From Leptolyngbyaceae cyanobacterium (lineage in GTDB: Bacteria > Cyanobacteriota > Cyanobacteriia > Phormidesmidales > Phormidesmidaceae): a DNA stretch of 64,000 nt. The stretch covers positions 1 to 64,000 of the forward strand of contig JBHJHA010000060.1 of assembly GCA_050331235.1 (NCBI GenBank). Direction: 5' to 3'. The translations under genes and the position numbers were made by a program. The notes beneath the pieces were generated by a model, which searched no databases, was not told where the DNA came from, and saw only the letters and a list, made by a program, of their open reading frames with translations. This document shows positions 52,687 to 58,864 of this stretch, piece after piece; the first letter of the stretch is position 1; every line of letters starts with the position of its first letter.

Positions 52687-52718
52687 GGAGTCACGACTAA
52701 CGTTGTGGCTCCTTTTTT
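52687..52718 (+). terminator. rps1 terminator
   Basis: GGAGTCACGAC-TAAC-GTTGTGGCTCC stem-loop followed by TTTTTT. Confidence 0.8.
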
Positions 52719-52802: not shown

Positions 52803-53897
52803 CTATCCGCCGTAAATAATGGCGTCAAATAGGACGTAGCGCTCTTCACCAATATTGAGAAAGACGCGATCCCCCTGGCGGGTACTGCTAAATGCTCCAG
52901 AGCCCCCCTCGACCTGGACGGGATTGCCATTCTCAAAGTAGACGGTAAAGGTGTTGCCGTACTGGGTGGTGATATCGACATAGCCACTGCCGTTGCCTTC
53001 GCGGACGACTCCGAAAGGACACTCTCCGTTGGCCTCAGCTGGGGTCATAGCGCAGGCGATCGCACCCGTCGCGTTATAGCTGGTGCCTGGGACGATGGCG
53101 TCTCCTGGAGAACTGCTTGCTCCCGCATTACCGCCTCCAGAAATGATCATTTCTAATCGATAGTTGGCTGCTTCCTCGCGGCGGGCGGCACTGCGCATCA
53201 AATACACGCGCACTTTGTAATCGCCGGTTTCGGGCAAGCTGCCTTCGTACTGATTGCCATTGATGGAGCCGTTGAAGATGGCCTCGTCATTGCTGCCGGG
53301 GGGCAAAATATTGAAGTAGTTGGCGGTATTGTCAGTCGCCATGCTGATGTTGGCATACTGACCGGCTTGCGCGTTCAGCACATAATCGATGGTGTTGTAG
53401 CCAACGATGGTGGCTTCGACGGTAGCGCTGGTGGCTCCGGGTTGAAACTGAACACGCTGCTTGGGAATGCCGTCTGAACTAGGCTGGCTACTGACAGGGC
53501 CAGAGTTGGATGGCGGTGCAGAGCTGCTTGACTCTGCTGTAGGTGCGGCCGCAGTTTCTGATGAACTGCCTGATTCGGCGAGAGTACATTCAGTCAATAT
53601 GATCGCGTTGTTGACCTCAACGACTGCCTTTTCACCGTCGATCAGGAGTTTGGTACTGCCATCGCTATAGGTGGTGCCAGAGTCTGACTCGACCAGCGGC
53701 AAGGCTAGATTTGGGCGATCGGGCAAATCAGCAACCGCTTCATTTGGCGATAGGCGAGCCGTAAACTCGGTACCGCCTTTGCATTGGTACGTTACGAGTG
53801 AGCCTTGGCCGGTTGCGGTGTTGGTGTCGGTATTACAGCCCAATAAACAAAATGATGTGAGCAAACCAGCACTCACTCGAAAAGATTGGTTCTTCAT
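52803..53897 (-). CDS. Lipoprotein with MliC-like + PliG-like lysozyme-inhibitor domains and an unnamed C-terminal domain
   Basis: Lipobox LLGC; YQC...SDSGTTY...C (MliC); RVQFQPG...GY...AGQ...LPETGDYKVRVYLMRSAARR (PliG); ATG 53897. Confidence 0.75.
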   Translation of the reverse strand: MKNQSFRVSAGLLTSFCLLGCNTDTNTATGQGSLVTYQCKGGTEFTARLSPNEAVADLPDRPNLALPLVESDSGTTYSDGSTKLLIDGEKAVVEVNNAIILTECTLAESGSSSETAAAPTAESSSSAPPSNSGPVSSQPSSDGIPKQRVQFQPGATSATVEATIVGYNTIDYVLNAQAGQYANISMATDNTANYFNILPPGSNDEAIFNGSINGNQYEGSLPETGDYKVRVYLMRSAARREEAANYRLEMIISGGGNAGASSSPGDAIVPGTSYNATGAIACAMTPAEANGECPFGVVREGNGSGYVDITTQYGNTFTVYFENGNPVQVEGGSGAFSSTRQGDRVFLNIGEERYVLFDAIIYGG

Positions 53898-54032: not shown

Positions 54033-54632
54033 TTACTCAGGCAAGGGTCGATCAATGGTGCTGGCGGGCAATCCAGGCATCAACACTGGACCGTCGCTGG
54101 TCATCTCAACTTCGTAAAAAACGCGACTTTCTCGCGATGCACAGCACAGGGCGTCTTCACGACTGTAGCGGTTGAACGAGGCATCGATAGCGCCATCGCG
54201 ATAGAGGTTGACGTCAAAGAGGCTACCGTCGGTACGGGAGTCCATCAGGTTCGGTGACAGCGTGCCGGCGAATTCACCATCGACGAAGACAAAGGTCTGA
54301 TAGCTGAAGGGGCGACACATCCCGTCGGCATCAGCCATGCCAGTGATTACTGTGGTGTCACCAAAGATGTAAGCCGGTCCAGAGAGGGACCATCCCGCCG
54401 CTTCAACGAGAGCATCTTCATAGAGTCGGGACTTACGAATCGTTTGCTCACACTCTGGCAGGTTGGAAAATTCTGAATTGGGCGCTTGAGGAATTTCGGC
54501 ACCAGCGACATTCCAGTTGGTGTCGCCGTCGAGCCAGGTACCGTCTTGGCTGGTTTGGGCTGAGGTGTGGGGCGCTAAGAGCAGAGACGCCAGCACCATA
54601 GAGCCAGAAATCAAAGAGACTGTTTTCATCAT
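54033..54632 (-). CDS. Secreted LppP/LprE-like protein
   Basis: Signal peptide; WLD..NWN..GA.IP.AP, DGMCRP, FAGTLSP..MDSRTDG, F.RY...DALCC, recalled from that family. Confidence 0.6.
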   Translation of the reverse strand: MMKTVSLISGSMVLASLLLAPHTSAQTSQDGTWLDGDTNWNVAGAEIPQAPNSEFSNLPECEQTIRKSRLYEDALVEAAGWSLSGPAYIFGDTTVITGMADADGMCRPFSYQTFVFVDGEFAGTLSPNLMDSRTDGSLFDVNLYRDGAIDASFNRYSREDALCCASRESRVFYEVEMTSDGPVLMPGLPASTIDRPLPE

Positions 54633-54736: not shown

Positions 54737-55399
54737 CTAGTCTATGCCCGTCACGACGATTTCATCGAGGCGGAAAAACTCTTCGTCATTGATGTTGATA
54801 AAGTACTGACCGTCTAAATACTGGGTTTGCAAATTGTCTCCTGGATCAATTGCGTGCAGCGCACCGCCATAAAAGGCCAAGTGGTGCTCAGTGCCCGTGA
54901 CTCCGTACAGGGTTAGGCTGGAGTTGCCCGGATCGCCAAAAATGACGTCAGTCTCACACTGGCTGTCGTAGGTGGGGGCCACAATGGAACAGGGCACCCA
55001 ACCACCCCCACGTTGGGGCTCATTAATAGCAGCAGTGTTAGCGCTCGTCTCGCCACCGTCCCAGTACACAAAGATCGAGACATCGGCGAGGCGATAGATA
55101 GTGCCAATTTCCCCCAGGCCATCTTCGCGTATGGCTCGTTGCCCATATTGATCGGTATAGGTGTTGGCCTGATTGGGGTCGGGGACCAGTTCGTAGGTGG
55201 TCCCATCCTCAAGGGTAAGGGTGACAAAGCCCTGTCGCTGAGAAAAGGTGCAAGGACCATAGCTAGTGGCGGTATCTTCGCCGATGGGATACACGTCACA
55301 GCGGGCTTGGGCCGTATCGGCTCGAGCACTCGTGGCGAGCCCCACCGTGGCGATCGCGGCGCACAACGATACAGAGAAAGTAGACAAACGAGACATCAT
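54737..55399 (-). CDS. Secreted two-domain hypothetical protein
   Basis: Signal peptide ending ARA; ARCDVYP..GPCTFSQRQG domain; C-terminal domain resembles that of the 52803 gene; GGAG SD. Confidence 0.75.
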   Translation of the reverse strand: MMSRLSTFSVSLCAAIATVGLATSARADTAQARCDVYPIGEDTATSYGPCTFSQRQGFVTLTLEDGTTYELVPDPNQANTYTDQYGQRAIREDGLGEIGTIYRLADVSIFVYWDGGETSANTAAINEPQRGGGWVPCSIVAPTYDSQCETDVIFGDPGNSSLTLYGVTGTEHHLAFYGGALHAIDPGDNLQTQYLDGQYFININDEEFFRLDEIVVTGID

Positions 55400-55620: not shown

Positions 55621-57612
55621 TCAGTTTTGAGGCAGTAAAAAGTCAGGTCGTAGAGCCGGTACACAGGTTTGGTTGAGTGGGCGATCGGGCTGGGTGAGAA
55701 ACTGCTGGATCAGATCTTGAGCACACGGGGAATATTGCAGCGTGATGTGTCCTGCACTGGGTAAAAATACAAATTGGCTGTTGCTTAAGGTGTCCGCTGC
55801 CAGCCGAGACCAGTTGGCGGGTGTCTGGGTATCGTAATGACCCGCTAAGACCAGCGTGGCAATGTCGCTGACCACAGGTGCTTGTTCGATCGCATCCGGC
55901 GTCCCCGCAGCGAAGCCATCGCAAATGGCAAAGTAACTCGCCACCGTATCAAACGGGCGACGGAGCGGCACTAGTGGCAGCGCCTGATAATAGGCCCAAG
56001 CCTGGCTCAGATCTTCGAAGGGCACTTCCTCCTGGCACTGGACGGCATAGTGCATCCCTTCGGCAATTTCGCCATAAAAGCGCGGCAGGGGTAGATCGGC
56101 GATCGCCAATGCAGAAAAAATGGCGTCTACATCGGCCTGACTCAGCTCCATCGTCAACGACATCAGGGATGCCGGTGGCGGCGCTTCCAGCGACAACCCA
56201 AAGTTGAGGAAATTGAGCAGTAGCGTCTGGGTCTGAGGTACGTCGTGGCGGCCCATGAGCGAGAGCAAATATTCCGCTAAGTAAAGCCCGCCAGGGGAAC
56301 GGCGATCGCTGATTTCCTGATACACCTGGGCCAGCCACTGATCGGCCAATGGCTGCCCCGTCGTCGGTGGATCGGCCAGCGGTGGAGTGCGATCGGTGGG
56401 CGCTGCTTCAGTCGGAGCGTTAATGATTTGCTCGATGTAGGTGGTGCCGTCTCCCTGGCTAAATTCCTGCAGGATCAGGGGCAGGGTGGCGGCGAGCTGC
56501 GGGTTGCGATTGAGGCGCCCAAACAATTCAGCGACAGTGTCGGCATTGACTATGATGGGCTCCGGTGCACTGCTAGCTAAAGTCAGCGGCGTCTGATCTA
56601 AGGTAGCGGCCAACGCTAAATAGGTGCTCCGCAGGTGAGGAAAGGCGGCATGGCAGGCTGCGTCCGTCTCGCAGTCGGTGAAAAACTGTTCGGCGGCGAT
56701 CGCCGCCAGCCCCGGGGTGAACTCATTGGAATCGATGTTAGGCGGCTCAACCGAATCTAAAATCACGCTGCGGATGCCGCTATCGGGAAAATCGCGCATG
56801 ACCGTCAGCGCCAACCGCGTTCCGTAGGAAACGCCCAGCAGATTGTACTGGTCGTAGCCTAGCGCCTGTACCAACGCCACAACATCGGCAGCACTGCGTT
56901 GACTGTTGTATTGAGCTAAGTCAACCCCGCGATCACGCCAAAACTGGCTGCACTGCTGTAGCGAGCTGTAGCGAGGCAGTTGGCGATATTGGGCGACGTA
57001 TTCCGCCGGGGTAGTCGCAACTTGAGGGTCAATAGCTGCAGCTACCACCAACTGGGTAAACACCGTCAAAAAGTCATCAATACTGCCACCGGCTTCGAGT
57101 AGAGGTAAGACTGCCGGTGTGTAGCAGTCGAGAGCCTCAGAAAAGGCGGTGCCGCGCTGGGCGATCAAAACCACATCCCGTTCAGCGCGAATGTCGCTGA
57201 GCCAGTCGGCGTAGCTGTGTACTGCATAAAAAGGACTGCCGCCGGGACCGCCCTCGAGCCACACCACCGGATCAGCGGCGGGGCGATCGCCCGTGGCATG
57301 CAACACCAGATAAGACACCTGTATGGAGCGGCTGGTGTCTGGCTGCTCCCAGTTTTCCGGCACGGTTAGCTGACCGCAGGAGACTGCTCCCAAGTCACTG
57401 ATATCTACCGGACAGTCAATGGAGCTCAGGCTGGTTGACGCCCATGCCGTTGAGGTTTCTGGGAGATTGGCTGCCCCCAATACTCCGCTGATTAGCAAGC
57501 TGGGCCAGCCCAGCCGCGCCATCCATCCTAAGGGCGATCGCACTTGCTTTGAGCCTCCGGTAAACGCGTTCATCGCGGGATCTGGTGGACGCTGCCGCCG
57601 ATCGGGGGACAC
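55621..57612 (-). CDS. Secreted alpha/beta hydrolase (TAP-like peptidase/esterase)
   Basis: CGQLTVPENW, LEGGPG, QRG, GVSYG nucleophile, G.YD.QTP, GH. Start uncertain. Confidence 0.85.
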   Translation of the reverse strand: MSPDRRQRPPDPAMNAFTGGSKQVRSPLGWMARLGWPSLLISGVLGAANLPETSTAWASTSLSSIDCPVDISDLGAVSCGQLTVPENWEQPDTSRSIQVSYLVLHATGDRPAADPVVWLEGGPGGSPFYAVHSYADWLSDIRAERDVVLIAQRGTAFSEALDCYTPAVLPLLEAGGSIDDFLTVFTQLVVAAAIDPQVATTPAEYVAQYRQLPRYSSLQQCSQFWRDRGVDLAQYNSQRSAADVVALVQALGYDQYNLLGVSYGTRLALTVMRDFPDSGIRSVILDSVEPPNIDSNEFTPGLAAIAAEQFFTDCETDAACHAAFPHLRSTYLALAATLDQTPLTLASSAPEPIIVNADTVAELFGRLNRNPQLAATLPLILQEFSQGDGTTYIEQIINAPTEAAPTDRTPPLADPPTTGQPLADQWLAQVYQEISDRRSPGGLYLAEYLLSLMGRHDVPQTQTLLLNFLNFGLSLEAPPPASLMSLTMELSQADVDAIFSALAIADLPLPRFYGEIAEGMHYAVQCQEEVPFEDLSQAWAYYQALPLVPLRRPFDTVASYFAICDGFAAGTPDAIEQAPVVSDIATLVLAGHYDTQTPANWSRLAADTLSNSQFVFLPSAGHITLQYSPCAQDLIQQFLTQPDRPLNQTCVPALRPDFLLPQN

Positions 57613-57745: not shown

Positions 57746-58864
57746 ATGATTCAGGCTTATTTGGTGCCCATCGAGGAGGCCGCTTTCGTTTTCTTTGGGC
57801 TGGCGGTGCTGCTGCTCATCCCCATTTGCGCAGTGCACTATCGGCGGTTTGGCTACGTTATGCCGTCCCGCGCTACGGTGTTTTATTCGCTGCTGTTTTA
57901 CAGTCTGTGTGCGGTTTTTTTAGTGAGTCTGCCGCTGCCGACGATCACGGCGGACTTTTGCGAGGTGCATACTCTGGCGCGTCAGGTGCGCCTTACCCCA
58001 TTTCAGTTTGTGCCCGACATCATTTTGGGGAACCAAATTACCCTGCGGCATTTCAACCTGATTTCGATGTTGGTGAGCTCGGTGTTCCTCCAGGCGTTTT
58101 TCAACTTTTTGCTATTGATGCCGCTGGGCTTTTACCTGCGGTATTACTTCAATTTGGGGTGGGGAGGAGCTGCTGCGATCGCCCTCGCGGTGACGGGACT
58201 GTTTGAGCTATCGCAAATCACGGGGTTGTTTGGCTTCTATCCCTGTCCCTATCGCACCTTTGATGTGGATGATCTTATTCTCAATACCGCTGGGGCTTTG
58301 GTGGGTTACGGGACGATGCCGTTTTTCAGTGCCCATCTGCCCAATCTGCAGGCGCGCCATGCGCCGCCGGTAGCCGTGTCTTGTGGGCGACGGTGGGTGG
58401 CGTTTGCTGTGGACTGGTTTTTGGCTAACAGTGTGTCTCGGCTGCTGGGGGCGCTGCTGCTTGGGCTGCATACGCCCCATGCACTTTGGCTGGACGGCTT
58501 GGTGTATGGTCTGTGGTTTGTCGGGGTGCCGAGTTTGTGGCAGGGGCGCACCGTGGGCAAAGCGCTGGTTAATATTCAGCTTGTGCAGTCTTCTGGGCAA
58601 CCGGTGCAGCTGAGTCAACTGGCACTGCGTTATGGATTGTTGCTGGGGCTGCCAGTGCTTACGGAGGTGGCGTTGCTGCATCAGTTATCAGAGCAACAGA
58701 GAGGATGGATCACGATCTCGCTCTTGATACTTCTAGTTCTAGAGGCGATCGCGCTAGCTGGCCTCATGCTGGTTCGCCCAGACCATCGGGGACTACATGA
58801 TCTCATGGCTGACACTCATCATCACGTTCTCGCATCCCGCCAGCAAAATACCGTCAGCCTCTAA
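57746..58864 (+). CDS. VanZ-family membrane protein fused to an RDD domain
   Basis: FNFLLLMPLG, FELSQITG, FDVDDLILNTAG (VanZ); RRWVAFAVD, GRTVGK, RGLHDLMADT (RDD). Confidence 0.85.
   Translation: MIQAYLVPIEEAAFVFFGLAVLLLIPICAVHYRRFGYVMPSRATVFYSLLFYSLCAVFLVSLPLPTITADFCEVHTLARQVRLTPFQFVPDIILGNQITLRHFNLISMLVSSVFLQAFFNFLLLMPLGFYLRYYFNLGWGGAAAIALAVTGLFELSQITGLFGFYPCPYRTFDVDDLILNTAGALVGYGTMPFFSAHLPNLQARHAPPVAVSCGRRWVAFAVDWFLANSVSRLLGALLLGLHTPHALWLDGLVYGLWFVGVPSLWQGRTVGKALVNIQLVQSSGQPVQLSQLALRYGLLLGLPVLTEVALLHQLSEQQRGWITISLLILLVLEAIALAGLMLVRPDHRGLHDLMADTHHHVLASRQQNTVSL

Follow-up and report, generated by a model that had tools for sequence, protein, structure and literature searches.

A predicted cyanobacterial lipoprotein joining MliC-type and PliG-type lysozyme-inhibitor domains to a widespread unnamed beta domain

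Within the window analyzed here, a 64,000-nucleotide stretch of a Leptolyngbyaceae cyanobacterium contig, the minus strand carries at 52803–53897 an open reading frame without internal stops that encodes a 364-residue predicted lipoprotein with an MliC–PliG–D3 architecture, D3 being our label for its unnamed third domain. Reading from the N-terminus, and with all features on the minus strand, the protein begins with a signal peptide and a lipobox (53835–53897) that we read by eye as LLGC after a hydrophobic stretch in a short N-terminal signal, with Cys21 as the predicted site of lipid attachment; an L-x-G-C box is also present in full-length relatives. Domain 1 (residues 33–106; 53580–53801) is an MliC/PliC-family barrel with Cys39 and Cys104, assigned by a PF09864 match and a fold match to 3oe3, and it holds the first MliC motif as SDSGTTY (residues 71–77; 53667–53687; family consensus SxSGAxY) with Ser73 kept, while the second motif position reads IDG (residues 86–88; 53634–53642) with Asp87 in place of the family lysine. 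A Ser/Ala/Pro-rich linker (residues 107–141; 53475–53579) follows, which is predicted to be disordered (pLDDT <50 at 111–139) and is poorly conserved, at 9–42% identity among relatives. Beyond it lie domain 2 (residues 142–253; 53139–53474), a PliG-family domain by phmmer against 4dzg and by Foldseek that contains Tyr167, Arg235 and Arg239, and domain 3 or D3 (residues 265–364; 52806–53105), an unnamed eight-stranded beta domain with Cys282, Cys293 and a C-terminal GG. The AlphaFold2 model, computed with 115 sequences, resolved these three regions (~33–106, 142–253 and 265–364) as confident beta domains joined by low-confidence linkers (full length: mean pLDDT 82, pTM 0.44), and all three domains are acidic. 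A first-pass annotation made from the letters of the sequence had described the lipobox, the cysteine pair, SDSGTTY, the Ser/Pro linker and domains 2 and 3, and all of these are present at coordinates that it placed correctly to within about 10 bases.

Three genes for predicted exported or hydrolytic proteins lie upstream on the same strand: a secreted protein with an LppP/LprE domain (54033–54632; PF14041, 38.7 bits), of a type also found near the family gene in locus L008, a secreted protein without a Pfam match that combines an unnamed N-domain with a distant D3-like C-domain (54737–55399; hhalign to the D3 profile 89.7%, E 1.9e-6), and a TAP-like alpha/beta hydrolase (55621–57612; PF08386, PF00561). 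Across phyla, 15 of 81 loci have a member of the 54737–55399 family beside the PliG–D3 gene, and there its N-domain is fused to SH3b or YsaB. Recurrent neighbors over these 81 loci include TAP-like hydrolases (7), YkuD (5), PrsW (5) and an LprI-containing cluster (4), and the domains encoded in genes adjoining family loci include SH3b, LprI, MliC and YkuD. Upstream of the genes of the cluster we saw no shared promoter module, with 3 promoter-like sites found against 3.0 expected. Divergent from the secreted-protein cluster is a VanZ–RDD fusion membrane protein (57746–58864, plus strand), and on the other side an 11-pair hairpin followed by a T run (52687–52712, plus strand) comes after the ribosomal protein S1 gene and so sits between that gene and the convergent fusion gene. 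The window also contains a CpeT/CpcT gene.

The gene and its three-domain architecture are not an assembly artefact, since there are 19 further three-domain homologues and a separately assembled contig from a stromatolite-metagenome run covers the stretch with zero differences, though that contig possibly comes from the same source and is not an independent sample. From three further runs (X2–X4) only short pieces were recovered, the shares in X3 and X4 being small. We also considered two exogenous origins for the fusion: a recent foreign origin was rejected because the GC (54.6%) and GC3 (0.595) of the gene resemble those of its neighbors (genome GC 52.6%), and a phage origin was rejected because no relatives were found in viral contigs.

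Evaluating domain 1 against known families, we found a PF09864 (Pfam MliC) match of 25.4 bits, or 28.3 as an isolated domain, over a cut-off of 22, and a score of 19.7 for the NCBIfam equivalog NF008475, whose threshold is 168. The predicted fold is an eight-stranded barrel (model strands 34–106) with Cys39 and Cys104 on the first and last strands, and it superposes on Salmonella PliC 3oe3 (Z 12.0, rmsd 1.7, 74 residues aligned), on Brucella PliC and PhiA (7dpy; Z 11.6 for both) and on Neisseria ACP (6gq4; Z 10.7). With the MliC/PliC family as known from E. coli YdhA, P. aeruginosa MliC, Salmonella PliC and Neisseria SliC, domain 1 thus shares the barrel, the first-to-last-strand cysteine pair, the SGxxY loop and a lipoprotein N-terminus, and it differs in its second motif and in being fused to two more domains. 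The family motifs are given as SxSGAxY and YxxxTKG in the available text of PMC5507604, and in that of PMC6033465 Ser89 and Lys103 of P. aeruginosa MliC are named as lysozyme contacts and the SliC S83A/K103A double mutant is reported to have lost inhibition. The first motif is kept in domain 1 with its contact serine and a threonine for the consensus alanine, and the pattern SxSGxxY occurs in 9 of the 4080 stop-to-stop frames of at least 150 aa in the genome. The second motif is not: the corresponding segment reads TKLLIDG, the tryptophan and lysine are lost, and alignment sets Asp87 in register with the motif lysine of E. coli MliC, a replacement that the first pass had suspected. Given this failure of the second motif, domain 1 by its sequence is a member of the MliC fold family and not of the canonical c-type inhibitor class.

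We evaluated how the motifs are distributed among relatives. The motif-2 lysine is present in 5 of the 21 MliC-bearing proteins among the best 120 homologues, and in a domain-1 tree of 33 sequences our protein falls in a 15-member clade (support 99/97) in which that lysine is lost throughout (15/15); 6 members still have the motif-1 serine, 5 have threonine in its place and 4 have leucine or an insertion. Elsewhere the motifs are commoner: among 104 other long proteins, both patterns are matched by 89 of the 112 MliC domains, stand-alone MliC lipoproteins of the same family carry ASGARY and WNKG, and the three-domain relatives P0016, P0018, P0019 and P0020 retain both. The domain is under purifying selection and is not decaying, as among four clade members it is 80–95% identical with pN of 0.03–0.14 against pS of 0.62–0.77 (dN/dS values of 0.000, which reflect saturated synonymous sites, were set aside), and it is the sole MliC domain that we found in this genome, which is 95.5% complete.

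These observations bear on the proposal of the first-pass annotation that one surface-anchored protein blocks two muramidase classes, which would have domain 1 still inhibit c-type lysozyme. As to surface anchoring, what the sequence shows is a lipobox. The domain assignments and the fusion behind that proposal hold up, and its c-type half is weakened. Inhibition by domain 1 may persist, because Ser73 and the SGxxY loop are intact here and the published loss of function came from a double mutant; the Pfam score, fold and cysteine pair, the purifying selection and the four relatives with both motifs also speak for it, as does Neisseria ACP, which has the MliC fold and neither motif and yet inhibits lysozyme according to the available text of PMC5507604. 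Against it stand the exchange of a lysine for an acidic residue here, the clade-wide loss of that lysine, the altered serine in 9 of 15 members and the case of Brucella PhiA, a motifless MliC fold that in the accessible portion of PMC8334348 inhibited neither hen lysozyme nor SagA. PhiA and ACP are both single-domain structural neighbors without the motifs, whereas domain 1 has the SGxxY loop, and from what is available of these sources motif loss in MliC folds can go either with absence of inhibition (PhiA) or with inhibition through another surface (ACP). On balance we consider dual inhibition by this particular protein unlikely. The loss of the lysine in all 15 clade members and of the serine in most, set beside the 89 of 112 domains that keep both motifs, instead suggests that domain 1 has likely switched its target or weakened in this clade, and relatives with both motifs are, by sequence, the better candidates for true dual inhibitors.

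For domain 2, neither Pfam nor NCBIfam returned a PliG model match. Searching with phmmer gave an E-value of 8e-16 to Aeromonas PliG 4dzg and of 2e-7 to 1.2e-6 to three enterobacterial PliG chains, a profile search against solved PliG structures gave 2.9e-23 to 1e-12, and domain 2, alone of the three domains, matches phrog_2177 in PHROGs. The model likewise resembles 4dzg (Foldseek TM 0.88, rmsd 1.3; Z 18.3, rmsd 1.6, 110 aligned). Compared with the known PliG proteins (Aeromonas hydrophila 4dzg; E. coli 4dy3/4g9s; Salmonella 4dy5), domain 2 has the same predicted fold, is 36–38% identical to 4dzg in structural alignments and reads TGDY at the PliG SGxY site; the solved chains are single domains of 111–114 aa, whereas domain 2 lies inside a lipoprotein and is always followed by a further domain. 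The tyrosine of its GY pair and both arginines, which the first pass had picked out by likeness to E. coli PliG, are indeed kept, with Tyr167, Arg235 and Arg239 aligning to E. coli positions 47, 115 and 119. We take Tyr47, Arg115 and Arg119 to be the E. coli residues that mediate inhibition, plugging the active-site cleft of g-type lysozyme. Pfam, phmmer and the predicted folds agree with the first-pass identification of an MliC–PliG fusion; that annotation had given domain 3 no identity.

The triad is complete in 110 of the 121 domains of the best 120 homologues (both arginines in 120/121) and in 65 of 88 PliG domains from genome loci, in a more distant sample found via D3 it is complete in 17 of 55 (both arginines in 42/55), and in weaker domain-2-like domains from genomes of the same family it is complete in 0 of 14. 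In these alignments the arginine surface is a stable feature of the PliG domain and the tyrosine varies with distance. A different interpretation holds that the protein inhibits nothing and is an envelope scaffold or adhesin that reuses inhibitor-like folds for binding. The fold of domain 2 is also that of non-inhibitory collagen-binding and PPC domains, many genomes of the family carry the weaker look-alikes without the triad, and modules appear to be shuffled freely, but nearly all close family members have the arginine pair, which those look-alikes lack, and the likeness to PliG in sequence and fold (Z 18.3 and 14.1) is well above that to same-fold PPC domains (Z ≤12.3). We regard the scaffold interpretation as improbable. 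Inhibition of g-type (GH23) muramidases in the manner of PliG is the likely role of domain 2, favored by its greater closeness to PliG than to PPC domains and by a triad that is kept in close homologues and in none of the 14 look-alikes.

Two side observations concern module reuse. The domain-2-like domains without the triad, stand-alone or fused (L086–L088; L101–L111), show the PliG/PPC fold being widely reused among these cyanobacteria. A second type of cyanobacterial lipoprotein (L089:808–1860, minus strand; P0293, P0294) joins an MliC domain lacking both motifs to the N-domain of the 54737–55399 family (shown for P0293 and P0294), and this pairing of a degenerate MliC with the neighbor's N-domain suggests that such modules have been shuffled repeatedly.

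We then assessed where the fusion occurs and how it is built. Among the best 120 of 805 homologues, 98 are D2–D3 proteins (D2 denoting domain 2), 20 are D1–D2–D3, one is D1–D2 with another C-terminus and one is D2–D2–D3, and in that set all three-domain carriers with names are cyanobacteria, the named full-length homologues being Leptolyngbya, Halomicronema, Elainellaceae and Synechococcales records. Among the best 80 of 283 genome loci, the D2–D3 core extends over cyanobacteria, alpha-, beta-, gamma- and delta-proteobacteria, Bacteroidetes and Gemmatimonadetes; five of these loci, each of them cyanobacterial, also have domain 1. Screening 150 other family genomes turned up the fusion in 3, which belong to the same genus (3/12), and D3 was present in 11 of 301 genomes of the phylum. 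On a domain-2 tree covering the first 60 proteins only, the distribution of the fusion needs 3 changes, and a single origin is not established. Seen from the MliC side, a PliG-like domain was found in none of 104 further long MliC proteins (7995 candidates scored, not a full census). By sequence, then, the fusion is an MliC domain added to a PliG–D3 core that several phyla share widely and that lacks annotation, and databases name the fusion proteins after the MliC domain only and the D2–D3 proteins as hypothetical.

The view of these inhibitors as mainly single-domain proteins of animal-associated proteobacteria, held in the first-pass annotation, calls for correction on two points. Cyanobacteria were already reported in 2008 to have MliC-type proteins (PMC2267010, available text), MliC is commonly fused to META, PF09619 (YbaY-type), LprI or hydrolase domains, and the PliG-like domain is half of the widespread PliG–D3 family. 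In M. tuberculosis LprI–MliC, a published fusion in the accessible part of PMC7933661, and in META–MliC and YbaY-type–MliC, MliC is a module of a multidomain exported protein as it is here, but the partners differ, being PliG in our case. We found no description of an MliC–PliG fusion or of PliG–D3 among the titles and abstract openings of the accessible literature.

D3 is the least familiar of the three domains. Its model (pLDDT 93) has eight strands and then a final helix, and it matched nothing in Pfam, NCBIfam or PHROGs, one row at chance level in a PDB profile search, and hypothetical proteins only in the Atlas; against the MliC profile hhalign gave a probability of 0.3%, with no profile similarity seen. 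In the comparison with known lysozyme-inhibitor folds (MliC, PliI, Ivy), VIA-align returned weak matches to generic barrels (best Z 6.5, rmsd 3.3) and Foldseek none below E 0.001. D3 might instead be a cargo barrel of Slam (type 11) secretion, which would be C-terminal and eight-stranded and go with a Slam transporter gene: it weakly resembles NHBA/TbpB barrels (Z 5–6), and PF04575 gave no match in this genome, although the control gave no match anywhere either. This absence of matches does not establish a new fold. The D3 profile gathers 1186 clusters at 50% identity, and among its best 150 matches the domain reaches to within 3 residues of the C-terminus in 144, a terminal GG occurs in 126 and 54 also carry domain 2. 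In a Pfam scan of the 113 longer proteins among 147 new ones, the partners of D3 were SH3b (31), META (11), LysM (5) and DUF992 (5), none catalytic, and this company supports the view of D3 as likely an accessory binding module. Residue 317 is arginine in 96% of 153 D3 domains, phenylalanine here and valine in the relative P0010, on which basis D3, to judge by its sequence, deviates in the fusion proteins too.

The protein could act in the periplasm mainly to restrain the cell's own peptidoglycan-cleaving enzymes, either a Slt-type GH23 lytic transglycosylase or GH24 lysozymes, and the genome does encode one Slt-family and two GH24 enzymes, with YkuD, LprI and SH3b genes at family loci. In keeping with such a role, animal g-type lysozymes nest within bacterial lytic transglycosylases in the available text of PMC12855814, and MltA and MltB were partly inhibited in vitro by E. 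coli MliC in that of PMC10139938, although the same text rates MliC as no more than a weak inhibitor of transglycosylases whose binding could not be detected. Housekeeping control fits poorly with a gene so patchy beside a near-universal Slt (38 of 41 genomes of the class, against the rarity of D3 in the phylum and of the fusion in the family), and no peptidoglycan hydrolase was recognized among the 45 largest neighbor clusters of the 81 loci, so that we give control of the cell's own enzymes a low chance of being the main function. As a separate observation, the two GH24 lysozymes are paralogues of 234 aa on contigs C92 and C70 (L113:1225–1929, plus strand; L114:1459–2163, minus strand) that have in common an unnamed N-domain, a proline linker and no obvious signal peptide, and the L114 gene comes after a 383-aa gene on the same strand.

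Taken together, our preferred interpretation, which we put at a probability of roughly 0.5, is that of a predicted lipid-anchored envelope protein with three independent beta domains, whose PliG domain is a likely inhibitor of g-type (GH23) lysozymes from grazers or predatory bacteria, whose MliC domain has likely lost or changed its c-type target, and whose D3 likely serves as the accessory module. Such a protein would have arisen by fusion of a cyanobacterial MliC lipoprotein to the N-terminal side of a secreted PliG–D3 protein, the MliC part supplying the membrane tether and the flexible linkers leaving the domains free to work independently. With Tyr167, Arg235 and Arg239, domain 2 would occlude the active-site cleft of g-type muramidases that arrive from outside, as E. 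coli PliG does, and selection may have retained domain 1 because it binds a different partner or contributes to structure. For the placement of related lipoproteins, the accessible text of PMC2267010 puts E. coli MliC at the inner face of the outer membrane, and that of PMC6033465 describes SliC as displayed on the surface. Grazers and myxobacteria are plausible outside sources of g-type lysozyme in biofilms: in the available text of PMC12855814, placozoan grazers of marine biofilms digest with g-type lysozyme and predatory myxobacteria carry g-type lysozymes nested among animal ones. The preferred interpretation is weakened by a tyrosine that is less fixed in the broader sample, by a fold common to non-inhibitory domains and by the patchiness of the gene. 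A bolder version takes D3 itself for a new widespread muramidase-inhibitor domain and PliG–D3 for a defense of free-living bacteria against g-type lysozymes made by early animal grazers and by myxobacterial predators; the fusion would then be a three-headed inhibitor with an MliC head now directed at a new class of enzyme. We give this version a low probability.

Lysozyme inhibitors have been studied as immune-evasion factors of animal-associated bacteria. Their wider role could lie in defense against enzymes from outside or in holding the bacterium's own autolysins in check (PMC10139938 and PMC10746161, available text), a question that becomes testable beyond pathogens with a PliG domain whose contact surface is conserved among bacteria from soil, sediment and mats in several phyla. 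The fusion in addition offers a natural series, with MliC motifs intact in some relatives and eroded in this clade, along which a change of inhibitor specificity can be tracked; should the proteins prove non-inhibitory, they would be a further case of small envelope modules being recombined. The unannotated PliG–D3 family, which is widespread, and the D3 domain itself are the larger lead. As a minor observation on annotation, Paracoccus plasmids (H11, H12) encode PliG-like domains labeled 'DNA breaking-rejoining protein', which is probably a propagated misannotation.
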